DNA from: Sphaerodactylus townsendi
Taxonomy: Eukaryota
Reading direction: 5' to 3'
Assembly: GCF_021028975.2 (NCBI RefSeq)
Contig: NC_059425.1
Coordinates: forward strand, 16,182,001-16,246,000
Length of the DNA: 64,000 nt
How positions within the stretch are numbered: the stretch's first letter is position 1; the number at the start of each line of letters is the position of its first letter. A program made the position numbers and the translations under genes. A model generated the notes under the pieces. That model did no database searches and was not told where the DNA came from. It saw only the letters and a list, made by a program, of their open reading frames with translations. Shown here piece after piece: positions 2,383 through 64,000 of the stretch.

Positions 2383-2446
2383 ATGGCGATCCTGCACGCC
2401 CTTCTCATCATCCTTGTGGGCTCACTGGGGACTCTGGCTTTGCAAG
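2383..2446 (+). CDS. PTX-A exon 1, signal peptide MAILHALLIILVGSLGTLALQ
   Basis: Strong Kozak ccaccATGG, 21 mostly hydrophobic codons plus 1 nt, donor G|gtaggt. Same 64-bp phase-1 architecture as the other genes and as CRP/APCS. Confidence 0.9.
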
Positions 2447-2733
2447 GTAGGTGCTGGTTTGGGCTATAGGAACAAATGAAGCCCAGAAGAGCCAAAGAGG
2501 TGTAGATTGCAACGGGGTGTGTGTGGGGGCGTTGTTCCTAAGGAGGTGTACAGAAAGAACAGAGGTGGAGATTCCCTAGCATCGTGTCTAGACTCTAGGA
2601 GTAAAAATCTGCACCTGAGGGAAAGTTGTGCTTGAAAATTCCTGTTCCCCTCTGATATGAGGCTCCAGCTGATCCACTGAAATTGCCCAATCACAATCGG
2701 TACTGGTTCATCTTGTGGAGAAATGCTTTAGAC

Positions 2734-3244
2734 CAGTGGTGGCGAACCTATGGCACGGGTGCCAGAGGTGGCACTCAGAGCCCTCTCTGTGCGCACGCGC
2801 AAACAGAGTCACCCCCCCTCACATCTAGGCTGGCATGGGCTGCTGGGCTCGATTATTAGCATTAAACCTAAGATCGAGTTTTGGGGAAGCAGTCTAGGTA
2901 ACCCTGTTAAGTGCTGTTAAACCCCGCTGATTTTCATGCAAAGTACTAAAGCGCAATCCTTTACCTGGGAGTAAGCTCAGTTGCTGGCAATGGAGCTTGC
3001 TTCTGAGTAAACCCTCCTAGGGTCGTGATTCACCCGTTGGAAGAGTTGCACGGTTGCTTCAAAGCAAAGCCATCGACTACCACCGAGCTTACTCCCTAGT
3101 AACGCACGCCTTGGAGCCAACCATTTTTTTCTAAACTAAAACCTCAGTATTCAGGTTAAATTGCTGTGTTGGCACTTTGCGATAAATAAGTGGGTTTTGG
3201 GTTGCAATTTGGGCACTTGGTCTCGAAAAGGTTCACCATCACTG
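2734..3244. mobile_element. Non-autonomous hAT (Charlie-type) DNA transposon in the PTX-A intron
   Basis: TIRs cagtggtggcgaacct / aggttcaccatcactg and perfect 8-bp TSD CTTTAGAC (2726-2733, 3245-3252). Confidence 0.9.
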
Positions 3245-3454
3245 CTTTAGACTGTCTCAGATAAAGATGTTAGTAAGATCAGTTGAGGGGCAGCGGTCAA
3301 GGATATTGTGCGCTTCCACATTATAATATAGTCCCGAACAAATTTGAACATTATCATCCATTTCTATGTGGTGCCTTTGTCAAAACCATTGTTGTGTGCA
3401 TTACTGAGCATGGTACTTTGATACAAGAGCGTGAATGCCAAACTTTATTTTTAC

Positions 3455-3700
3455 TTTCAAGCAGATGTGGCTTTGGTCTGGTATTTTTTGCTCCTAACAT
3501 TTTGCCCGCGTCTATAGTTGGCATCTTCAAAGGCGTGTCATGGCAAGATGTAATAAAAACACACATTTCACAGTGACTTGCCGCTGAAGATGGAAGCCAT
3601 AAATGCGGGCAAAACACGAGGAGCAAAAACTTCTAGACCACAGCCACACAGCCTGGAAAACCCATAACAAAGTTCATTCTGGCTGTGAAAACCTGCGACA
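3455..3700. mobile_element. Inverted pair of Penelope-like pseudo-LTRs (degenerate hammerhead motifs) in the PTX-A intron
   Basis: ttttgctcctaacat..ggcatcttca arm facing a ctgaagatg..ggagcaaaaact..cctggaaaaccc..gtgaaaacctgcgaca arm. Confidence 0.7.
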
Positions 3701-4344
3701 TTATATCTTAATGTTATTCTGATAAATACACAAGCATGTCCCGCTTTTAAAATTTCTAGAGTACTATAGCTTTCCAACCATTTTCAGAGAACCAAACTTC
3801 TAAACATGACCAAGATTAGAGATCACATACCTGCTCCTTTTACAACTAAACTTCATTCAGGTGTATTGTTGAAGATTTTCATGGCTGGAATCACTAGGAT
3901 GTTGCGGGTTTTCCGGGTTGTATGGCCATGTTCCAGTAGTCTTTTCTCCAGATTAGAGTCTTAACCTGTCCTGGACTGCCAGTCTCACAGAGCGTTGGGT
4001 TCCAGCTGATAGGAGGCACAGATGCAAGAAAGGGATGTAAGAGAGCAGTCTTACTCTGAGTCCAGAGAAAAAGTCATAGCAGGTCTGTTAAGAGGCAGTG
4101 AAGGGTCTAAGAGAGGTTAGGTCAGGCAATGACTGGGGGGGGGGGCGGCTGTAGGCAGGAGGGCACCTGGAGGAGATATTGCCCCTGGGTGCCATTTCCT
4201 TTCATACATTTCTGGTCATACACCACAGTCCCGGTTTGGCTATGGCGCCACCAGGTAGGCTGTGCAAACAAAAATAGTCTTGCAAAAAATAGCATTGCGA
4301 CACTGCGTGCTATGTGTATCATGATCCCTGATTGCCTGAGACTA

Positions 4345-4558
4345 CATCTATGGCTACCAATCTTGATCCTCCTTGATCTCAGATTGCAAATGCCTTAGCA
4401 GACCAGGTGCTCGGGAGCAGCAGCAGAAGGCCACTGCTTTCACCTCCTGCAAGTGAGCTCCCAAAGGCACCTGGTGGGCCACTGCGAGTAGCAGAGTGCT
4501 GGACTAGATGGACTCTGGTCTGATCCAGCAGGCTCGTTCTTATGTTCTTATGTTCTTA
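4345..4558 (+). mobile_element. CR1 LINE 3' fragment
   Basis: tatggctaccaatcttga (YGYQS*) plus a 3' UTR closely matching the larger CR1 copies, and (TTCTTATG)n tail. Confidence 0.9.
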
Positions 4559-4952
4559 CATTGTGATGAAGCAGAACCCATCACAATGAGCAAAAATGGC
4601 TCTGAAGCATCTGCACAGTACATTAACAGGCCCAAGAACAAAACAGGTTTGATGGGAGTCTTTCCATGAACATTTTGGTCCCCCTCCAAAAGCTGTCATT
4701 TGGAGCTGAAAAATGTTCACTTGCAAACACTTGTCTGTATTAAAAAGGATCCCTGATTGGCTGGCCCGTGCAAGCGGCCGCCTTGATCTGCAGTGTTCTA
4801 CACTGTGTCTCTATGAACTGGAACAAAGTATCTGCCTCACACGCTTGCAAGTGCCAGACAATCGGGGATCCTTCTCAAAGGCAGTCAGCCGGTCTCAGAA
4901 CCAGCTAACTTGACGATGCATGGAAACTATTATTTTCTGGCTTCTTTTACAG

Positions 4953-5587
4953 ACCTTGAAAGGAAGATCTTGATTTTCCCAGAAGCAACCAACACAGCTC
5001 ATGTTGTTTTGAGGGCTACGAGTCAGCAGTCTTTGACCAGCTTCACTGTGTGCCTCAAATCCTACACAGACCTGAGCCGTGCCTACAGCCTTTTCTCTTA
5101 CGCCACCAGAAAGTCTGACAACGAGTTCCTTATCTTCAAACCCAAACCCAACCAATACAACTTGTATGTGGGGGGATCCATCGTGACCTACAGTGTAGCA
5201 GACAATCGAGTCCCCAAACCACAGTGGGAGCATATTTGCATGAGTTGGGAGTCTGCCACAGGAATAGTGCAGTTTTGGTTGAATGGGGAAAGCTTGCCCC
5301 GCAAGGGTATGAAGAAAGGTTATACTATTGGTTCTGAAGCTTCAATCATACTCGGGCAGGAGCAGGATTCCTTTGGAGGTGGCTTTGACATCAACCAATC
5401 CTTTGTAGGCGAGATTGCAGACCTGTATTTGTGGGGTCGAGTGCTTTCACCGGAAGAACTGGTCCTCGTTGGCAACGGTGGTCACCTTTCTGACTACTTG
5501 ATCGATTGGCGATCCCTTAATTACGAAATCAAAGGCTATGTGGTGGTTAAGCCCTCCCTGTTTCACTCCTACAGAACCCCCATGTAA
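4953..5587 (+). CDS. PTX-A exon 2, short pentraxin (CRP/SAP/mucosal-pentraxin-like) domain; spliced product 232 aa
   Basis: Acceptor cttttacag|AC, signature HICMSWES, FTVC cysteine, DNE motif and LGQEQDSFGGGFDINQSFVG Ca2+ loop. Open to TAA. Confidence 0.96.
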
Positions 5588-22397: not shown

Positions 22398-22461
22398 ATG
22401 AGGAAGATGCTTCTTTCTCTCTTGCTCCTTGCTGGTCTCTGGGGCTCTCTTGCCCAGAAAG
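22398..22461 (+). pseudogene. PTX-B exon 1, signal peptide MRKMLLSLLLLAGLWGSLAQK
   Basis: 64-bp phase-1 exon with donor G|gtgggt, homologous to exon 1 of PTX-C to F. Confidence 0.88.
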
Positions 22462-25158: not shown

Positions 25159-25787
25159 ATCTCGAAAGGAAGGCGTTCGTTTTTCCAGAGGCATCAAAAA
25201 CGGCGCATGTGGTCTTGAAGCCCACAATGCGACGTCCGTTGACCAGTTTCACTCTGTGCATGAGGTTCCACTCGGCCCTGACCTGCGGCTACAGCCTCTT
25301 CTCTTATGCCACAAAGAGAAACCCCAACGCGATCCTCCTCTTTGTGAAGAAACCCAATCGATTCGATTTTTATTTGGGCGGTAAAGCGGTGCCTTCACGG
25401 TTGCACCAAACTATGTCAACAGCCATGCTGGGAGGCACATCTGCTTGAGTTGGGAATCTTCCACTGGCTTAGTGGAGTTCTGGATCAACGGTCAACCTCT
25501 GGTCCGGAAGAGCCTGAAGAAAGGCCATGCTGTCCCCACCGAGGCATCCGTTATCCTCGGCCAAGAGCAAGATTCCTTCAGAGGTGGCTTCGACATCAAA
25601 GAATCCTTCGTTGGGGAGATCACGGACATGTGGGATCGTGTTCTGTCTCCCGATGAAGTGGGCCAGGCCTGGTATGTTGACGATTTCCCTGGAAATGTAA
25701 TTAACTGGAAATCGTTAAAACTACAAAACCCAAGGTAATGTTATTGTGAAGCCCGCTCTGGCTTCGTTCTACAGAGCTCCTGGGTAG
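25159..25787 (+). pseudogene. PTX-B exon 2, pentraxin domain with frameshifts
   Basis: Acceptor ctcctcag|AT and DLERKAFVFPEAS start. A -1 nt shift near 25391-25393 gives a stop at 25446-25448. Also a 6-nt deletion near 25627 and a +1 A at 25717-25720. Corrected reading gives HICLSWES and ends YRAPG* at 25787. AATAAA at 25935-25940. Confidence 0.85.
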
Positions 25788-33618: not shown

Positions 33619-33682
33619 ATGCGGAAGATGCTCCTCTCTCTCCTCCTCCTCGTCAGCCTGGTGGGCTCTCTCGCTCTGGAAG
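33619..33682 (+). CDS. PTX-C exon 1, signal peptide MRKMLLSLLLLVSLVGSLALE
   Basis: 64-bp phase-1 exon, donor G|gtgggt. Confidence 0.92.
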
Positions 33683-33944
33683 GTGGGTATCATCACAGTA
33701 GGACAAGAGCCTCCACATGCTTCAGCCGAAGCATCTAGATTTGACTCCAGTAGAACATTAGATGCCAATAATAATTTAAGGGAACGAGCGTACAAGAGAT
33801 CTAGCAGACTCATAGAGATGGATTGTTGAAGGCTTTCACAGTCAGAATCAATGGGCTGTTGACAGTGTTGAGAGATTTCTGGTCCATGTGGCCGTAGTCT
33901 GGTAGGTTTTTTTGCTCCTAACATGATACCTGCATCTATACCTC

Positions 33945-34207
33945 ATAACCACATTAGCTTTAAAAGGGGCTTGGATAGATTTATGGAGGAGAAGTCAATT
34001 TATGGCTACCAATCTTGATCCTCTTTGATCTGAGATTGCAAATGCCTTAACAGACCAGGTACTCGGGAGCAACAGCTGCAGAAGGCCATTGCTTTCACCT
34101 CCTGCATGTGAGCTCCCAAAGGCATCTGGTGGGCCACTGCGAGTAGCAGAGAACTGGACTAGATGGACTCTGGTCTGATCCAGCTGGCTTGTTCTTATGT
34201 TCTTATG
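33945..34207 (+). mobile_element. CR1 3' fragment nested in a Penelope pseudo-LTR pair (33822-34447) in the PTX-C intron
   Basis: CR1 3' end with ttcttatg tail splits the gcatcta|tggctggcatctt pseudo-LTR. Confidence 0.85.
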
Positions 34208-34676
34208 GCTGGCATCTTGGGATGCATGTCAAGACAAGGTAAGATTATCTCTATGGTATGGTGTGGAGTGATTGTGTGGTGCGATACCTCTTTTGTGTAT
34301 CTCACTCTTCACCCATGTGTGAAAACAGAAACCCCATGACACAATCACGGGATGCACATCTTACCACGACACGCCTCTAAAGATGCCAAGACACCTTAGC
34401 CACAAAAACTACCAGATCAGGGCTACGTATCCTGGAAAACCCTCAGCTGCCCACACAGCTTCTGAAACTGAAAGCATTTTCCTTAAACAAAATTATGCAG
34501 TTTTGAGTTTCTGTCTGGAGATGTTTGTCTTGCTGGGAATGAGCCCTCTCCTCCCCCTCCCCATTTTCATGGTTGCATTTAATCCTTCTCGTCCACCCAA
34601 CAGCATGTGCTGTGTGCTATGAGGTGACTGGTTTGGTTGACTCTGCGACTGGGGGCCAGGCTAGGTTAGGCTAGTG

Positions 34677-34817
34677 CAGGGGTCTGCAACCTGCGGCTCT
34701 CCAGATGTTCATGAAGTACAATTCCCATCAGCCCCTGCCAGCATGGCCGATGCTGGCAGGGGCTGATGGGAATTGTAGTTCATGAACATCTGGAGAGCCG
34801 CAGGTTGCAGATCCTTG
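34677..34817. mobile_element. Palindromic hAT MITE in the PTX-C intron (same insertion as 61787-61927 in PTX-F)
   Basis: Perfect TSD GGCTAGTG. Same site and same variant TIR (atccttg) in PTX-F; absent in D and E. Confidence 0.9.
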
Positions 34818-35035
34818 GGCTAGTGGCAGAAGAATGTGGCCAGTTAGGCAACAGGTGGGTTGGAAGAGAATCCCTCTCTTGTTGGGGGGAAGGGAAATCA
34901 TTAATTCATTTGCCCTCTGAATTAATATATATTCTCAATCAGCAAGCAAATGTTTTTCACAAAAGACCCTCTGGGACATGACCTCTCTTGCAGAATGACA
35001 GTTTTGCCCAACCCTGATTCTCTTTCCCTCCGCAG

Positions 35036-35661
35036 ATCTGGAAGGGAAGGCATTGGTTTTCCCGGAAGCATCAGACACAGCCCATGCACGCTTGAACGTC
35101 ACGATCCAGCAGCCCCTGTCGAGCTTCACCCTGTGCCTAAGATACCTCACAGAAATAAAGCGCACCCAAACCCTTTTCTCTTACGCAAGCAAGAGGACTG
35201 ACAACGAGATAGCTCTCGACAGATACGATCTGGGTTACCAGCTTTATACACAGGGGCTTACCTATGCAGACTTCAAGGTTCCGGAAATATTAACCAGCAA
35301 CTCTCTTGGGGAGCACGTTTGCGTAAGTTGGGAGTCTGCCACAGGCTTAGCTGAGCTCTGGGTGAACTGGAGGCCCTTGGTCCGGAAGAGCTTGCAGAAA
35401 GGCCACTCCGTCATGGCTGAAGGATCCATTGTTCTTGGACAAGACCAGGATAATGTTGGAGGGGGCTTTAACATCAACGATTGCTTTGTAGGGGAGATCA
35501 CAGACGTGTACATGTGGGACCGTGTTCTGTGCCCCGACGAGGTGGTCCATGCCTTTCACAACCACCCTCTTCCAGGCTACCTGATCAACTGGAGATCACT
35601 GAGTTACAGCATTAAAGGCTATACCAAGCCTGCCTTGTTGTCTGCCTGCAGAACTGGGTAG
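35036..35661 (+). CDS. PTX-C exon 2, short pentraxin domain; spliced product 229 aa
   Basis: Acceptor ctccgcag|AT, HVCVSWES, DNE, GQDQDNVGGGFNINDCFVG. Open to TAG. Confidence 0.94.
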
Positions 35662-39699: not shown

Positions 39700-39807
39700 C
39701 CACCTTCCAATGGGGCATTTTCTCTAGGTGAACTTATCTCTATTGCCTGGAGATCAGTAATGCCAGATGTGATAACTAGATGGGTGATAACCCAGATATG
39801 ACCTCAA

Positions 39808-41960
39808 AGAACATAAGAACATATGAAAGAGCCTGCTGGATCAGACCAGAGTCCATCTAGTCCAGGACTCTGCTACTCGCAGTGGCCCACCAGGTGCCTT
39901 TGGGAGCTCACATGCAGGATGTGAAAGCAATGGCCTGCTGCTGCTGCTGCTGCTGCTCCCGAGCACCTGGTCTGCTAAGGCATTTGCAATCTCAGATCAA
40001 GGAGGATCAAGATTGGTAGCCATAGATCGACTTCTCCTCCAGAAATCTGTCCAAGCCCCTTTTAAAGCTATCCAGGTTAGTGGCCATCACCATCTCCTGT
40101 GGCAGCATGTTCCAAACACCAATCACACGTTGTGTGAAGAAATGTTTCCTTTTATTAGTCCTAATTCTTCCCCCCACCATTTTCAATAAATGCCCCCTGG
40201 TACTAGTATTGTGAGAAAGAGATAAAAATTTCTCTCTGTCAACATTTTCTACCCCATGCATAATTTTATAGACTTCAATCATATCCCCCCTCAGCCGTCT
40301 CATCTCCAAACTAAAGAGTCCCAAACGCTGCAGCCTCTCCTCATAAGGAAGGTGCTCCAATCCTTCAATAATCCTCGTTGCCCTTCTCTGCACTTTTTCT
40401 ATCTCTTCGATATCTTTTTTGAGATGTGGCGACCAGAACTGAACACAGTATTCCAAGTGCAGTCGCTCCACGGCTTTATATAAGGGCATGACAATCCTTG
40501 CAGTTTTATTATCAACTCCTTTCCTAATGATCCCCAGCATAGAGTTTGCCTTTTTCACAGCTGCCATGCATTGAGTTGACATTCCCATGGAATTCCCATG
40601 GACACTTGTAGCGTGTATGTGAAGTTTGGATTTTTTGCCCCTATGTGCATCACTTTTCATTTTGCTACATAGAATAGAATAGAATAGAATAGAATAGAAT
40701 AGAATAGAATAGAATAGAATAGAATCTTTATTGGCCAAGTGTGATTGGACACACAAGGAATTTGTCTCCGGTGCATATGCTCTCAGTGTACATAAAAGAA
40801 AAATACATTTGTCAAGAATCATAAGGTACAGCACTTAATGATTGTCATATAGGTCTAGTAAGCAATCAGGAAACAATCAGTAGTAATGAAAACATAAAAT
40901 GTAAAATCATAAAATAAAATAAAATAAAATAAAATAAAATAAAATAAAATGTCAGCACAGGCTATAGTCATACAGTCATAAGTGGGAGGAGATGGGTAAT
41001 AGGAATGATGAAAAAAGTAGTGCAGTAATTATATAATAAGTATATAATAAATAGTTTAACATTATCGAGGGAATTATTTGTTTAACAGAGTGATGGCATT
41101 CGGGAAAAACTGTTCTTATGTCTAGTTGTCTTGGTGTGCAGTGCTCTGTAGCAACGTTTAGAGGGTAAGAGTTGAAACAGTTTATGTCCAGGATGCGAGG
41201 GGTCAGTAAATATTTTCACAGCCCTTTTTTTGACCCGTGCAGTATACAGGTCCTCAATGGAAGGCAGGTTAGCAGCAATTGTTTTTTCTGCAGTTCTGAT
41301 TATTCTCTGAAGTCTGTGTCGATCTTGTTGGGTTGCAGAACCAAACCACACAGTTATAGAGGTGCAGATGACAGACTCAATGATTCCTCTGTAGAACTGT
41401 ATCAGCAGCTCCTTGGGCAGTTTGAGCTTCCTGAGTTGGCGCAGAAAGAACATTCTTTGTTGTGCTTTTTTGATGACATTTTTGATATTAGGTGACCATT
41501 TTAGGTCATGAGATATGATGGAGCCTAGAAATTTAAAGGTCTCTACTATTGATACTGTGTTGTCTAGTATTGTGAGAGGAGGTAGGATGGGAGGGTTTCT
41601 CCTGAAATCTACCACCATTTCTACGGTTTTAAGTGTGTTCAGTTCTAGATTGTTCCAGTGGCACCACGAGGCTAGTTGTTCAACCTCCCGTCTGTATGCG
41701 GTTTCATCGTTGTCTCGAATGAGACCAATCACTGTTGTATCATCTGCAAATTTCAGTATTTTAACAGTATTTATTACAGACATTGAACTGCATTTGCCAT
41801 TTCTTAGCCCACTCACCTAATTTATCAAGGTCCGTTTGGAGCACTTCACAATCCTTTGCAGTTCTCACCACCCTACATAATTTGGTATCATCTGCAAATT
41901 TGGCCACCACGCTACCCACCCCTACTTCCAGGTCATTTATGAATAGGTTAACGAGCCCTG
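39808..41960 (-). mobile_element. CR1 LINE 3' portion interrupted by a Rex1/Babar insertion
   Basis: NLFINDL..KFADDTKL (41761-41979 ORF) continues as HLEYCVQFWSP..RRLRGDMIEVYK..YGYQS (40007-40670), then the 3' UTR. Confidence 0.93.
40671..41779 (-). mobile_element. Rex1/Babar-clade LINE 3' fragment
   Basis: KFADDTTVIGLI..NDETAYRREV..LELNTLKTVEMVVDFRR..KKAQQRMFFLRQL, (TTCTA)n tail at 40671-40725, apparent TSD ACAT (40667-40670, 41780-41783). Confidence 0.88.
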
Positions 41961-44752
41961 GGCAACACGTAGCAACCAATCAGATTGCTGGAAAATCGGC
42001 ATGGCTGCAAAGATTCCTGTCTTAGTGTCTTTGAAACTATGCATGCGTGGGATTTTTTTTAGTAACATTTTCTGTACAGATAGACGAAAACAACGCAAAT
42101 TATTTTCAGGAGCTTAACACGCTTGCAGAACGTTATGAAAGGCACCATGCGAAAAAAAAATATGAAAACTGGTCTTTTTAAAACGTCTGCAGAAAAGACC
42201 TTTGTGAGCTTTATTTTCCATCAAGTTCTTGTATTATGAGAGAAAATGTTTTCTCCACTCCATGAATAATTTTATGACTGATAAGCCCCAGACTCTTCAC
42301 CTGAGCCCCTATGAGGAACATGTATGAAAATCATTACCTTTTGTTACGTGACTGGACAATATATGTGGCAGCTCAGAAGACAGAAAACAGAAGAACATCT
42401 TCTGTGTGTGCTCCATTCTGTCCACATCTTTTCGGACATGAGGCTTCCACAACTGCACAGAACACTCCACGTGCGGCCAGAACAGAACAGTGTACAGTGG
42501 GACTATGACATCTTGTGATTTGAATGTTCTACCTCTGTGGATACAGGCTTTGATTCAGGTCTCGATAACTTTCCCAATTGAAATAAAATAACAGAGGCCT
42601 CACACTTTGAAAAGCTGGCATCCAGTGGGTTCACCTGGGGGTTTCATTAGAAGACTGTTCTACCTGTGTGAGATGTGCTGAGCAGTGGTTGGCTGCTAGG
42701 GTGGTCCATAAGCAGGGGGCATCCCCAGCATTCCACTCTGTGATTGGTGGGCATTGGTGTAATGAGAGATTCCAGTCCCGCATCCAATCAGAGGGATTCC
42801 AGTCCCACATCTCATTCCAGAATGAGGGATTCCAGTCCTGCATCTCTCTCTGGGAGATCTCAACAAACATTCTAAAAGTGACAGTTGGGGACAGTTAGCG
42901 CTCTGTCTCTGCTGAGGAATGATGTTGTTAAGAGTTCTGTGTAAAAGCCTCTGACCGAAAGGTAAATATTGTAAACGATGCCTGTTATGGTAACCAAATC
43001 GTAACCAAACGATGAACTGTGAATGTATTGGTGGATGTGACGCTTTGTTCTATGTATATAGTCTATTTCTCTCTCAGCATAAGTAAAGGTCTTTTGTTTA
43101 TGATTTCTGAGGTTAAAAGGCTGGTCTTTAACAAGATGTTCTTATTTTAAAGTGGTGCACAAAGCTAGATTCTGCTTGTTACTCAGCAAGCAGAATTATA
43201 TACAATTATATACAAATATACCTGTCGACCTCCAATACCTCTGTGGATACATGCTTTGATCTAGGTCTTGATCACTTTCCCAATTTAAATTAAAAACCAG
43301 AGGCCTCACACTTTGAAAAACTGGCCTCCTGGGGCTTCACCTGGGGCTTCATTAGAAGACTGCTCTACCTGTGTGAGATGTGCTGTGGTTGGCTGTGATT
43401 GGCTGATACAATCCATATGCAGTTGACCAGGGTCAACCCCAGCATCCCACTCTGTGATTGGTGGGCATTGGTGTAATGAGAGATTCCAGTCCCGCATCCA
43501 ATCAGAGAATCCATACTAAACAATTCCAAAAGGTTCAGTAGCAGATTTCTCCAGTATTTATCTATTAAAAGATGATTTTCTAAATTTGATAATACAAGTA
43601 AGGAGCGAGTTCAGTTCTTTGAATTCTAACGAGCAAACCAGCCTGAAATCTTGTAGAGACTTTTAACTTTTATTGTGGAGAGATATTGTTTACTTTATTA
43701 TACAAGACAGTAAAAAATACAAGTGTGTGCAAATCCCTACTGCTACTGGAAAAATAAGTGCTAAAATGATCAAGCTTCCTAGCATTGCTTAATCGTATTA
43801 TAATGAATAACAGTTTAGAGCCAGTGTGGTGTAGCGGTTAAGAACTACAACTCTAATCTGGAGAACCAGGTTTCTTTCCCAACTCCTACACATGAAGGCT
43901 GCTGGGTGACTTTGAGCTAAACACAGTTATCTCAGAACTCTATCAGCCCTGCCTACCTCACAAAGATACTGGTAGGTCTGTTGTGGGGAGAGGAAGGGAA
44001 GGAGTTTGTAAGCTGTTTTGAGATTCCTTAACGATTGAGAGTCAAGAAGGGTATAAAAACCAACTCTCCTTCCTCTTTAAAAAGCAAATCGGCTTTCAGC
44101 CTGTAGTTTAGGGGTCAGCAAAAAGCCCAAGTTACATATCCAGACATTTCACTTCTGAGACTTCCATCAAGAGAAATCTGGTTTGCTTATGAGGCCAGTG
44201 TGTATTTATAGAAAAAAAAATCAGTCTTATTTTTTCAACATCTGTTCTGTCACAATCACATGATTACTGTCTAGAGACGTGACTGGTTCTTCACCAACTA
44301 TGAAATGATCAACAAGTGAAAATGAGCTGATTAGCAAGTGTATACGAGTTACGTCTGATATAGCAAGATAAGAAGACCAATCTCGTCTTTGAAACTCCAT
44401 TGAAAATCTATCAATCTAATTTTTCTGCAACTAACTGTCCGAGATGATAGTAGCTAAGCAATTAACTATCCAAGATGAAAGTAACTTAGAGCAAACAGAG
44501 TTCACTGACAGTTTTGTTTTTAAAAGAATGGCTGAATACTCTCCAATAGCTTGTCAATTCAGCAGGAAAAAAGATTAGTGATGTAATACCTGAGCTACAT
44601 TAGTACGATGGCTACTATATGGACTACAGTTACTACATTGTTAGTCCAGATTAATAGAGCAGTATCTATGTGCTGAATTAGCATGCAGGAATGTTCAATT
44701 AACTTCCTCTCCACTCCCCTGACTTCCTAGACAAGTGAGTTATTTGCCACCC

Positions 44753-45384
44753 CTACCCAGCTCTTTGGGCAGACAGCAGGGCAGGCTTAACAAGGGCATA
44801 GCCTCTGATGCTGTAACTCAGTGATCTCCAGTTGATCAGGTAGTCAGGAAGAGGGTAGTTGTGAAAGGCAAGGACCACCTCGTCGGGGCACAGAACACGG
44901 TCCCACATATACAAGTCTGTGATCTCCCCTACAAAGCAATAGTCGATGTCAAAGCCCCCTCCAAAGTTATCCTGGTCTTGTCCAAGAACAATGGATCCTT
45001 CAGCCATGACGGAGTGACCTTTCTGCAAGCTCTTCCGGACCAAGGGCCTCCCGTTCACCCAGAGCTCAGCTAAGCCTGTGGCAGACTCCCAACTTACGCA
45101 AACGTGCTCCCCAACCGAGTTGCTGGTTAACATGTCGGGAACCTTGAACTCTACATAGTTACCCCCCAGCATATAAAGATGGTAGGCAATATTGTTTCTG
45201 TTGAGAACAATCTCGTTGTCATTCCTTTTGCTTGCGTAAGAGAAAAAGGTTTGGCGGTGCTTTATTTCTGTGAGGTATCTTAGGCACAGGGTGAAGCTCG
45301 ACAGGGGCTGCTGGATCGTGACGTTCAAGCGTGCATGGGCTGTGTCTGATGCCTCCGGGAAAACCAATGCCTTCCCTTCCAGAT
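44753..45384 (-). CDS. PTX-D exon 2, short pentraxin domain; spliced product 231 aa
   Basis: Acceptor ctccgcag|AT on the minus strand, HVCVSWES, DNE, GQDQDNFGGGFDIDYCFVG. Intact ORF. Confidence 0.95.
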
Positions 45385-46325: not shown

Positions 46326-46389
46326 CTTCCAGAGCGAGAGAGCCCACGAGGCTGAGGAGGAGGAGGAGAGAGAGGAGCATCTTCCGCAT
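46326..46389 (-). CDS. PTX-D exon 1, signal peptide MRKMLLSLLLLLSLVGSLALE
   Basis: 64-bp phase-1 exon, donor G|gtgggt. Confidence 0.93.
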
Positions 46390-49929: not shown

Positions 49930-50561
49930 CTACCCAGCTCTGTGGGCTGACAGTAGGGCAGGCTTAACAAGGGCATAGCCTCTAATGCTGTAACTCAGTG
50001 ATCTCCAGTTAATCAGGTAGCCAGGAAGAAGGTAGTTGTGAAAGGCAAGGACCACCTCGTCGGGGCACAGAACACGGCCCCACATGTACACGTCTGTGAC
50101 CTTCCCTACAAAGGATTGGTTGATGTCAAAGCCCCCTCCAACGTTATCCTGGTCTTGCCCGATAACCACGGATCCTTCAGCACTGACGGAGTGACCTTTC
50201 TGCAAGCTCTTCCGGACCAAGGGCCTCCCGTTCACCCAGAGCTCAGCTAAACCTGTGGCAGACTCCCAACTTACGCAAACGTGCTCCCCAATCGAGTTGC
50301 TGGTTAGTATGTCTGGAACCTTGAACTCTACATGGGTAAGCCCCTCTATATTAAGCTGGTAACCATTATTGCTTTTGTAGAGGGCGATCTCATTGTCAGT
50401 CCTCTTGCTTGCGTAAGAGAAAAGGGTTTGGAAGCCCTTTATTTCTGTGAGGTATCTTAAGCACAGGGTGAAGCTCGTCAGGGGCTGCTGGGTCGTGATA
50501 TTCAAGCGTGCATGAGCTGTGTTTGATGCCTCCGGGAAGACCAACGCCTTCCTTTCCAGAT
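49930..50561 (-). CDS. PTX-E exon 2, short pentraxin domain; spliced product 233 aa
   Basis: Acceptor ctcctcag|AT, HVCVSWES, DNE, GQDQDNVGGGFDINQSFVG. Intact ORF. Confidence 0.95.
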
Positions 50562-50998: not shown

Positions 50999-52550
50999 CT
51001 TCCCTGAAGACTAAAAGATGGCCAATGTCACACCAATCTTTAAGAAAGGATCTAGGGGGGACCCAGGAAATTACAGGCCAGTCAGTTTGACATCTGTTCC
51101 TGGTAAATTAGTAGAATCTATCATTAAAGATAAAATTATTAAACATGTAGAAAAGCAAGACCTGCTGAGGAAGAGTCAGCATGGCTTTTGCAGAGGCAAG
51201 TCCTGTCTTACAAACTTACTAGAGTTCTTTGAGGGTGTAAACAGGCATGTGGATAAGGGGGAACCAGTGGACATTGTCTACTTGGATTTCCAAAAGGCTT
51301 TTGACAAAGTTCCTCACCAGAGACTATTGAGAAAACTCAGCAATGAAGGAATAAGAGGGGAAGTCCTCCTATGGATTAAAAACTGGTTGAGAAACAGGAA
51401 GCAAAGAGTGGGTGTAAATGGGAAATTTTCACAATGGAGAGATTTAGGGAGTGGTGTCCCCCAAGAATCCGTTTTGGGACCAGTGCTCTTTAACCTTTTC
51501 ATAAATGACCTGGAAGTAGGGGTGGGTAGCATGGTGGCCAAGTTTGCAGATGATACCAAATTATGTAGGGTGATGAGAACCGCAAAGGATTGCGAAGAGC
51601 TCCAAGCGGACATTGATAAATTAGGTGAGTGGGCTAAGAAATGGCAAATGCAGTTCAATGTAGCAAAATGTAAAGTGATGCACATAGGGGCAAAAAATCC
51701 AAATTTCACATACAAGCCACAGGGGTCAGTGCTATCAGTCACAGACCAGGAAAGGGATTTAGGCGTCTTAGTTGATAGTTCCATGGGAATGTCAACTCAA
51801 TGCATGGCAGCTGTGAAAAAGGCAAACTCTATGCTGGGGATAATTAGGAAAGGATAATAAAACTGCAAAGATTGTCATGCCCTTATATAAAGCAGTGGTG
51901 CGACCGCACTTGGAGTACTGTGTCCAGTTCTGGTCGCCACATCTCAAAAAGGATATGGAAGAGATGGAAAAAGTGCCGAGAAGGGCAACGAGAATGATTG
52001 AGGGATTGGAGCACCTTCCTTATGAAGAGAGACTGCAGCGTTTAGGGTTCTTTAGTTTGGAGAGGAGACGTCTGAGGGGGGATATGACTGAAGTTATAAA
52101 ATTGTGCATGGGGTAGATAATGTTGACAGAGAGAAATTTTTTTCTCTTTCTCACAATACTAGAACCAGGGGACATACATTGAAAATGCTGGGGGGAAGAA
52201 TAAGGACTAATAAAAGGAAACACTTCTTCATGCAATGTGTGATTGGTGTTTGGAATATGCCGCCACAGGAGGTGGTGATGGCCACTAACCTGGATAGCTT
52301 TAAAAAGGGCTTGGACAGATTTATGGAGAAGTCGATCTATGGCTACCAATCTTGATCCTCCTTGATCTCAGATTGCAAATGCCTTAGCAGACCAGGTGCT
52401 CAGGAGCAACAGCCGCAGAAGGCCATTGCTTTCACATTCTGCATGTGAGGTCCCAAAGGCACCTGGTGGGCCACTGCGAGTAGCAGAGAGCTGGACTAGA
52501 TGGACTCTGGTCTGATCCAGCTGGCTTGTTCTTATGTTCTTATGTTCTTA
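50999..52550 (+). mobile_element. CR1 LINE (RT domain to 3' end)
   Basis: ANVTPIFKKG..NYRPVSLTS, YLDFQKAFDKVPH, FADDTKL. Small frameshifting deletions, (TTCTTATG)n tail, apparent TSD ttaactgt. Confidence 0.95.
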
Positions 52551-52661
52551 ACTGTGTGCATCTTAAGTAGTTACTGAGATCCCAGTTTTATGGCCAATCT
52601 ATCGATTAACAATCGATAGATTGTTTGAGCCCTGTTGGGAAAGGGCGGTATATCAAATTTA

Positions 52662-53901: not shown

Positions 53902-54816
53902 GTAAACTATGTAGGGTGGTGAATACCACAAAGGATTGCGAAGAGCTCCAAGCGGACCTTGATAAATTAGGTGAGTGGGCTCAGAAATGGCAAATGCAGT
54001 TCAATGTAGCAAAATGTAAAGTGATGCACATAGGGGCAAAAAATCCAAACTTCACATACACGCTACAGGGGTCAGTGCTATCAGTCACAGACCAGGATAA
54101 ACTCTATGCTGGGGATAATTAGGAAAGGAATTGATAATAAAACTGCAAAGATTGTCATGCCCTTATATACAGCAGTGGTGCGACCGCACTTGGAGTACTG
54201 TGTTCAGTTCTGGTCGCCACATCTCAAAAAGGATATCGAAGAGATAGAAAAAGTGCAGAGAAGTGCAACGAGGATGATTGAAGGATTGGAGCACCTTCCT
54301 TATGAGGAGAGACTGCAGCGTTTGGGACTCTTTAGTTTGGAGAGGAGACGGCTGAGCGGGGATATGACTGAAGTCTATAAAATTATGCATGGGGTAGAAA
54401 ATGTTGACAGAGAGAATTTTCTCTCTCTTTCTCACAATACTAGAACCAGGGGGCATTCATTGAAAATGCTGGGGGGGAGAATTAGGACTAATAAAAGGAA
54501 ACACTTCTTCACGCAACGTGTGATTGGTGTTTGGAATATGCTGCCACAGGAGGTGTTGATGGCCACTAACCTGGATAGCTTTAAAAGGGGCTTGGACAGA
54601 TTTATGGAGGAGAAGTCGATCTATGGCTACCAATCTTGATCCTCCTTGATCTCAGATTGCAAATGCCTTAGCAGACCAGGTGCTCGCAGAAGGCCATTGC
54701 TTTCACCTCCTGCCTGTGAGCTCCCAAAGGCACCTGGTGGGCCACTGTGAGTAGCAGAGTGCTGGACTAGATGGATTCTGGTCTGATCCAGCAGGCTAAT
54801 TCTTATGTTCTTATGT
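53902..54816 (+). mobile_element. CR1 LINE 3' portion with an internal deletion
   Basis: ELQADLDKL..RPHLEYCVQFWSP..YGYQS*, 3' UTR and tail. Confidence 0.93.
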
Positions 54817-55083
54817 TAAACAAAACAGATATCCACCACACAATCACTCCACACCTTGCCACAGAGGGAAGCACTTGTCATGAGACGTGCCTCTGAAGAT
54901 GCCACCCACAGATGCAGGCATAACGTTAGGGGCAAAAACTACCAGACTAACTGTATTAGTCCATAGTAGATCTCTTGTACACTCGTTCCCTTAAAATCTT
55001 ATTGGTCTCTAAGCTGCTGCTGGAGTCAAATCTAGATGCTTCAGCTGATGCATGTTGAGGTTTTTGTCCCACTGTGATGACAC

Positions 55084-55283: not shown

Positions 55284-55353
55284 CTTCCAGAGCGAGAGAG
55301 CCCACGAGGCTGAGGAGGAGGAGGAGGAGGAGAGAGAGGAGCATCTTCCGCAT
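55284..55353 (-). CDS. PTX-E exon 1, signal peptide MRKMLLSLLLLLLLSLVGSLALE (two extra Leu)
   Basis: 70-bp phase-1 exon, (CTC)n expansion, donor G|gtgggt. Confidence 0.92.
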
Positions 55354-60936: not shown

Positions 60937-61568
60937 CTACCCAGCTCTTTGGGCAGACAGCAAGACAGGCTTAACAAGGGCATAGCCTCTGATGCTGTAA
61001 CTCAATGATCTCCAGTTAATCAGGTAGCCAGGAAGAGGGTAGTTGTGAAAGGCAAGGACCACCTCGTCGGGGCACAGAATACGGTCCCACATATACAAGT
61101 CTGTGATCTCCCCTACAAAGGATTGGTTGATATCAAAGCCCCCTCCAAAGGTATCCTGTTCTTGCCCGATAACAATGGATCCTTCAGCACTGACGGAGTG
61201 ACCTTTCTGCAAGCTCTTCCGGACCAAGGGCTTCTCGTTCACCCAGAGCTCAACTAAACCTGTGGCAGACTCCCAACTTACGCAAACGTGCTCCCCAACA
61301 GAGTTACTGGTTAATATTTCCGGAACCGTGAAGTCTACTTTGGTAAGCCCCTCTATATAAAGCTCGTAGCCAATATTGTTTCTGTTGAGAAGAATCTCGT
61401 TGTCAGTCCTCTTGCTTGCGTAAGAGAAAAGGGGTTGGATGTGCTTTATTTCTGTGAGGTATCTTAGGCACAGGGTGAAGCTCGTCAGGGGCTGCTGGAT
61501 CGTGGTCTTCAAGCGTGCATGGGCTGTGTCTGATGCCTCCGGGAAAACCAATGCCTTCCCTTCCAGAT
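60937..61568 (-). CDS. PTX-F exon 2, short pentraxin domain; spliced product 231 aa
   Basis: Acceptor ctcctcag|AT, HVCVSWES, DNE, GQEQDTFGGGFDINQSFVG. Intact ORF. Confidence 0.95.
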
Positions 61569-62672: not shown

Positions 62673-62736
62673 CTTCCAGGGCGAGAGAGCCCACGAGGCT
62701 GATGAGGAGGAGGAGAGAGAGGAGCATCTTCTGCAT
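62673..62736 (-). CDS. PTX-F exon 1, signal peptide MQKMLLSLLLLISLVGSLALE
   Basis: 64-bp phase-1 exon, donor G|gtgggt. Confidence 0.93.
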
Positions 62737-63478: not shown

Positions 63479-64000
63479 CATAAGAACATAAGAACAAGCC
63501 AGCTGGATCAGACCACAGTCCATCTAGTCCAGCTCTCTGCTACTCGCAGTGGCCCACCAGGTGCCTTTGGGAGCTCACATGCAGGATGTGAAAGCAATGG
63601 CCTTCTGCTGCTGCTGCTGCTCCTGAGCACCTGGTCTGCTAAGGCATTTGCAATCTCAGATCAAAGAGGATCAAGATTGGTAGCCATAGATCGACTTCTC
63701 CTCCATAAATCTGTCCAAGGCCCTTTTAAAGCTGTCCAGGTTAGTGGCCATCACCACCTCCACCTGTGGCAGCATATTCCAAACACCAATCACACGTTGC
63801 GTGAAGAAGTGTTTCCTTTTATTAGTCCTAATTCTTCTCCCCAGCATTTTCAATGGATGCCCCCTGGTTCTAGTATTGTGAGAAAGAGAGAAAAATGTCT
63901 CTCTGTCAACATTTTCTACCCCATGCATAATTTTGTAGACTTCAATCATATCCCCCCTCAGACGTCTCCTCTCCAAAGAGTCCCAAACGCTGCAGCCTCT
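63479..64000 (-). mobile_element. CR1 LINE 3' portion running off the window end
   Basis: ERRRLRGDMIEVYK..YGYQS*, 3' UTR and taagaaca tail. Confidence 0.93.

Follow-up and report, generated by a model that had tools for sequence, protein, structure and literature searches.

Human SAP (APCS; structures 1SAC and 1GYK), human CRP (1B09 and 1GNH) and the CRP proteins of zebrafish are the closest described counterparts of the gecko proteins reported here. SAP binds phosphoethanolamine, the pyruvate ketal of agarose and amyloid in a Ca2+-dependent manner. Residues L62, Y64 and Y74 have been assigned to its ligand pocket (PMC4118831), and L64, F66, T76 and E81 to that of CRP (PMC13698038; PMC6503050). 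Gln150 of CRP, the counterpart of Gln148 in SAP (PMC4118831), is a ligand of the second calcium site (site 2) and has been called pivotal for ligand recognition (PMC13698038); site 1 is described as the more critical calcium site of human CRP (PMC5784126). When calcium-site mutants of human CRP were produced in COS-7 cells, none was reported to be secreted except D60A and E147A, the latter with unaffected calcium binding and secretion (PMC5784126). Q150A appears among such COS-7 mutants in the supplement of a further study, and E138D, Q150D and Q150Y are absent from the mutant list in file 2 of that supplement (PMC8956723).

As with the genes described below, the short pentraxins CRP1-7 of zebrafish have expanded locally in tandem (PMC5446266). 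According to a 2019 review, CRP had yet to be isolated as a protein and characterised in any reptile (PMC6503050), and a literature search for expansion or selection of reptile or gecko pentraxins, which covered titles and the openings of abstracts and included few subscription papers, retrieved no paper on the present cluster. The surprise is nevertheless modest, because RefSeq already contains predictions of these genes and fish are known to have local expansions of pentraxins. We consider it somewhat probable that four of the loci, C to F, encode Ca2+-dependent short pentraxins with diverging ligand pockets and, in paralog D, a weakened second calcium site. Differing mainly at pocket positions, these four form a small natural panel in which to ask what residues determine the specificity of pentraxins and whether they can do without the second calcium site.

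A tandem array of short-pentraxin genes

The window, i.e., the whole 64-kb stretch of DNA that was analysed, contains a tandem array of six short-pentraxin loci, all of them CRP/SAP-like. Loci A (2383-5587), B (22398 to about 25786) and C (33619-35661) lie on the forward strand, and loci D (46389-44753), E (55353-49930) and F (62736-60937) on the reverse strand. Each is composed of a signal-peptide exon of 64-70 nt, a phase-1 intron with GT/AG borders and a single domain exon, and exon 1 is correctly oriented at all loci. The first exons are located at 2383..2446 (A, ending in a phase-1 donor), 22398..22461 (B) and 33619..33682 (C) on the forward strand and at 46326..46389 (D), 55284..55353 (E) and 62673..62736 (F) on the reverse strand; the corresponding domain exons occupy 4953..5587 (A), 25159..25786 (B, end approximate), 35036..35661 (C), 44753..45384 (D), 49930..50561 (E) and 60937..61568 (F). 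RefSeq holds models of 229-232 aa for A, C, D, E and F, named either 'CRP-like' or 'SAP-like', and the exon-2 protein of paralog C is 100% identical to a UniRef entry labelled Sphaerodactylus townsendi.

Each of these five proteins contains a single Pfam PF00354 domain (200-258 bits at a cut-off of 25), and all intact paralogs carry the HxCxS/TWxS signature of short pentraxins (PMC5446266), as HVCVSWES or HICMSWES, together with the two core cysteines, one of them in an FTxCL context. An AF2 model of paralog C, calculated without metal from a 93-row alignment, reached a pLDDT of 91.6, and Foldseek returned SAP (TM 0.91) and CRP (TM 0.89) as its best matches. Resemblance to human SAP extends to the two-exon gene with a signal peptide, 42% sequence identity and the C36-C97 pair. 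All five belong to the short-pentraxin family, and as judged from their residues they have neither the pocket of CRP proper nor that of SAP proper.

Locus B is likely a pseudogene. A frameshift near 25,390 leads to a stop codon at 25,446-48, upstream of the calcium-binding loop at 25,559, so that the loop is out of frame as assembled; exon 2 in addition has lost 6 bp of a core strand near 25,626 and is shifted in frame once more near 25,716. The first-pass annotation had treated B as one of several remodelled paralogs in which PNA replaces DNE and Glu replaces the last Gln of the loop. These replacements can indeed be read from the letters, but the supposed 'E150' lies outside any translated frame of the assembly, and as the frame is broken ahead of the loop we rejected B as a remodelled paralog. 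With short runs of bases right beside them, both frameshifts may stem from errors of assembly, an explanation that applies less easily to the 6-bp deletion.

Fragments of retrotransposons with reverse-transcriptase-like open reading frames, which we take to be CR1/LINE-like, are present at 39807-41961, 51015-52554, 54000-54817 and 63479-64000. They sit between the pentraxin copies and in introns, some are 87-93% alike, and they could promote unequal crossing over between the copies. In sequencing run X6, which stems from a relative, up to 6-7 different contigs per place in exon 2 aligned to 35036-35661, a variety that hints at a larger array or at more alleles in that relative and is not a measure of copy number. 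None of the 15 joints listed for the aligned contigs, a further 326 lying outside the listing, connects exon 1 with exon 2, which says nothing against transcription because contigs are unable to demonstrate absence.

The calcium-binding loop

The loop of paralog C (35437..35484, forward strand) translates as GQDQDNVGGGFNINDC, with D138 encoded at 35443-45, D150 at 35479-81 and C151 at 35482-84. Re-translation reproduced the loops of A, C, D, E and F as they had first been given, and alignment to human CRP (1b09) and SAP (1gyk) bore out the CRP residue numbering that is used throughout. In paralog D, the codon for Y150 is found at 44941-39 on the reverse strand. The loop of C does not look like an assembly artefact. 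Such an error is unlikely because a 325-nt contig of run X4 covers 35262-35586 with one differing letter and because about 41 of 132 depth units of run X1 carry the bases specific to C at 35454 and 35470; one contig of run X5 differs from C over 35423-35548 by seven letters, the same number as D, and adds count-level support only.

Of the calcium ligands at positions 60, 61, 138, 139, 140 and 150, D60, N61, Q139 and D140 are retained by all five intact paralogs, in agreement with human CRP and with D58, N59, Q137 and D138 of human SAP; in paralog C, D60 and N61 are located in strand E (35200..35220, forward strand). The ligand set is complete in A and F (E138 and Q150). Paralog E differs by D138, and paralogs C and D combine D138 with D150 and Y150, respectively, so that relative to SAP E136 is replaced by Asp in C, D and E and Q148 by Asp or Tyr in C and D.

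The exchange of Glu for Asp at position 138 had been proposed to alter or remove a calcium site, a proposal that is not borne out by the distribution of this residue. Among 138 homologs, a set from which six rows representing the proteins of the window itself and four proteins longer than 330 aa were excluded, position 138 is Glu in 71, Asp in 65 and Lys or Gln in one each. Fifty-five of the 65 D138 homologs have Q150, and D138 is combined with D60, N61, D140 and Q150 in 28 homologs. On a 143-row tree column 138 changed at least 24 times, close to the median column (22 changes), and N61, Q139 and D140 changed once each. In a set of diverse pentraxin domains, 273 of which (out of 285) have residues at these columns, D138 occurs in 85. 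Furthermore, the loop of a zebrafish CRP chain (4pbo) reads GQDPD, i.e., it contains Asp at 138; this peptide belongs to the better conserved stretches of CRP1-7, and 4PBP is described as the +Ca2+ form of zebrafish CRP5 (PMC6336239). CRP5 is a group II fish protein with about 34% identity, is trimeric in crystals and keeps Q150 in the solved chain. On these grounds E138D was rejected as a site-breaking exchange, and an easy misreading is corrected: in the pentraxins of sauropsids, GQDQD is no less normal than GQEQD. Small effects on affinity may still arise, Asp being shorter than Glu.

Position 150 presents a different picture, with Gln in 120 homologs, Glu in 8, Asn in 4, Asp in 3, Lys in 2, Arg in 1 and Tyr in none. 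Among the 273 diverse domains, D150 was found in 14 (in 7 of the 273 together with D138) and Y150 in 7, at least 5 of which are non-acidic at 138. D150 recurs in lacertids: the Podarcis proteins P0073 and P0099 acquired it independently, and P0073 also shares the D150-C151 pair of paralog C. The suggestion that exchanges of Gln150 harm a calcium site thus applies in part. Q150Y plausibly weakens site 2 of paralog D, but D150 of paralog C, though shorter and charged, likely keeps an oxygen ligand, so that, as far as the residues tell, weakening of the second calcium site is likely in paralog D alone. Since Q150A belongs to a class of mutants reported as non-secreted, Y150 might also impair the folding of D.

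It had further been suggested that E138D together with Q150D or Q150Y deletes a calcium site and leaves C and D with Ca2+-independent binding. The published role of Gln150 in site 2 and the lack of Y150 among the close homologs speak for this idea, as do the mostly non-acidic partners of Y150 in diverse domains, the additional replacement of D147 by Asn in C (D147 is present in paralog D) and a report that Limulus CRP binds membranes without Ca2+ (PMC6503050). We nevertheless regard it as improbable, since D138 is about as common as E138 and occurs in a +Ca2+ structure, site-1 residues are intact in every open paralog and D150 is still an oxygen donor. Moreover, human E147A was harmless to calcium binding and secretion, and loss of other ligands blocked secretion (PMC5784126), so that complete loss of calcium would more likely result in a misfolded protein than in a Ca2+-independent one. 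Outside the window, protein P0146, labelled Sphaerodactylus townsendi and at best 74% identical to paralog A, belongs to the clade of A and has GQQQN, i.e., E138Q plus D140N. Because both bridging carboxylates are gone, it is a better candidate than C or D for true loss of a calcium site.

For C to F as Ca2+-dependent pentraxins, we envisage that site 1 (D60, N61, Asp or Glu138, the carbonyl of Q139, and D140) would still bind Ca2+ and anchor the loop, and that an anionic group of the ligand would dock on the metal, with the walls formed by residues 64, 66, 76, 81 and 150 choosing what fits. In paralog C, D150 would likely retain the oxygen ligand for the second calcium and lose an amide contact, and together with D66 it would render the pocket more acidic. 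In paralog D, Y150 would remove the amide oxygen from site 2 and likely add an aromatic wall.

Ligand pocket and phylogenetic position

The pocket, which the first-pass annotation did not consider, appears from the residues to be changed to a larger extent than the loop. In the order C, D, E and F, position 64 is Ala, Val, Ala and Leu, position 66 is Asp, Asn, Tyr and Asn, position 76 is Tyr, Tyr, Asn and Tyr, and position 81 is Tyr, Tyr, His and Lys; positions 76 and 81 were mapped by pairwise alignment to SAP and CRP, as in this region the multiple alignment is off by one residue. For comparison, L64 is present in 117 and Phe or Tyr66 in 116 of the 138 homologs. Paralog F has a canonical loop, yet N66 in the pocket. 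All four pocket positions vary among C to F as opposed to 57 of 200 sites overall (P = 0.006), a test that involves four sites only, the names of which were looked up after the alignment had been viewed. The seven calcium ligands are not enriched in variable sites (3/7, P = 0.32).

The combination of F66, T76 and E81 that serves phosphocholine binding in human CRP is found in no paralog (A has F66 only), which makes CRP-type phosphocholine binding by C to F unlikely; the RefSeq label 'C-reactive protein-like' for paralog C is accordingly not backed by its pocket residues. With regard to SAP, the set L62, Y64, Y74 plus Q148 is not complete in any of C to F. A comes closest with Leu, Phe, Tyr and Gln and has a conserved SAP-like domain. 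Tyr at SAP position 74 is shared by A, C, D and F, and the aromatic Y64 of SAP is replaced by Asp or Asn in C, D and F (by D66 of strand E in C). C to F are likely secreted, Ca2+-dependent pattern-recognition proteins, and their specificities likely differ.

A tree was calculated for 45 rows chosen out of about 145 proteins, comprising gecko rows and 11 outgroups. Paralog A belongs to a conserved clade of 11 gecko rows (support 100/99), apart from C to F, which form a four-row clade of their own (100/99) with a single Euleptes protein, P0006, as sister. This group falls within a clade of 23 gecko rows that varies at positions 60, 66, 138 and 150; the relatives of C to F among geckos and lacertids are predicted proteins termed CRP-like, SAP-like or mucosal pentraxin-like. 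With mutual identities of about 82-85% and dS values of about 0.08-0.18, C, D, E and F are, on this tree, a recent four-copy expansion, a feature that human SAP does not share. P0006, the closest outside relative found, has F66, E138, Q150 and S151, so that the changes in C to F would postdate the split from Euleptes. Within the 23-row clade D60 is replaced by Ala, Ser or Tyr in 15 rows, and N61, Q139 and D140 never change; the variability of D60 fits the tolerance of D60A reported for human CRP.

Branching inside the recent clade is (F,(E,(C,D))), with support of 97/84 for C plus D and a weaker 95/64 for C, D and E. From this order, E138D would have preceded the changes at 150 and 151. Stepwise remodelling of the loop, as originally envisaged across all paralogs, thus stands for the recent clade, but A as a member of another clade and the broken B are not steps of it. 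The 24 informative nucleotide sites among C to F are distributed over three groupings (12 for CD, 8 for CE and 4 for CF), and V142 is common to C and E but not D, a mosaic that indicates gene conversion or homoplasy.

Selection, lesions and extra cysteines

Among C to F, pN/pS reaches 1.02 in a middle segment of 50 codons, as against 0.71 for the loop (16 codons) and 0.55 for the 143 remaining non-loop codons, the last value pointing to persisting purifying selection. An M1a/M2a comparison with our own code gave nominal P values of 0.005 on 204 codons and 0.014 on 194 codons, with codons 64, 81 and 150 among those of the fast class, and segment-wise trees picked post hoc gave a nominal P of 0.006. 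As the observed ratio was also attained in 5 of 53 null simulations run with a mosaic tree, the signal of positive selection is only suggestive and not robust. The overall omega of 0.77 also fits relaxed constraint.

This leads to birth-and-death decay, according to which C, D and E would be spare copies under relaxed selection and gene conversion that have gained no new specificity, and in which the changes at 150, 151 and 155 and in the pocket would be early steps towards pseudogenes like B. Besides the broken neighbour, the omega value, the failed simulation control, the mosaic of informative sites and the non-secretion of human calcium-site mutants, several possible lesions are in line with it. 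In paralog C, a 6-bp in-frame deletion at about 35620-35626 (forward strand) has removed two residues from the last strand and occurs in none of the 138 homologs. It appears to be real, because the insertion that the other paralogs carry is missing from about half the depth of runs X1 and X5; the AF2 model of C still has a strand at this place. In paralog E, K155 (50103-50101, reverse strand) replaces a residue that is Glu in 138 of 138 homologs. As D155 is listed, along with R118, among the pentamer-assembly residues of human CRP (PMC8956723), E may assemble differently or fail to do so; R118 is kept in all paralogs. Finally, R47, present in 134 of the 138 homologs, is altered in D, E and F. 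W113 of paralog C has parallels in 8 of the 138 homologs.

On the other hand, the reading frames, signal peptides and GT/AG splice sites of C, D, E and F are all intact at the dS values given above, the low pN/pS beyond the middle segment and the loop indicates ongoing purifying selection, the changes concentrate at pocket positions, and both core cysteines are retained along with D60, N61, Q139 and D140. We therefore judge decay to be possible, though on the unlikely side, and favour C to F as Ca2+-dependent pentraxins with diverging pockets. An extension of this reading, more doubtful still, would see gecko short pentraxins as a fast-evolving germline receptor repertoire, shaped by repeated lineage-specific duplication and diversifying selection on the pocket walls, in which paralog D would be a natural one-calcium pentraxin whose Tyr150 takes the place of the second metal site and offers a new microbial ligand an aromatic wall.

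The loops of A, E and F contain an N-Q-S sequon that is missing from C and D, exactly as first described. A sequon of this type (N149-x-S151) is present in 58 of the 138 homologs. It was lost in C and D through the S151C exchange (TCC to TGC), which is also seen in 8 of the 138 homologs, and its loss was consequently rejected as an independent step. Paralog C retains N-D-C at this place, and N-x-C is a weak, non-canonical sequon. C, D and E have a further N-x-T sequon at exon-2 residue 21.

Human SAP does not share the extra cysteines 151 and 167 of the gecko proteins. A new disulfide involving C151 is unsupported, since in the ten rows that contain C151 no non-core cysteine column is occupied more than twice; C151 and C167 occur together only in C and D. 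The cysteine at CRP position 167 (35530-35532 in C) is common to C, D, E and F and absent from all 138 homologs, and paralog C has an additional C-terminal cysteine at 35647-35649. C167 and the C-terminal cysteine are possible candidates for inter-subunit disulfides.
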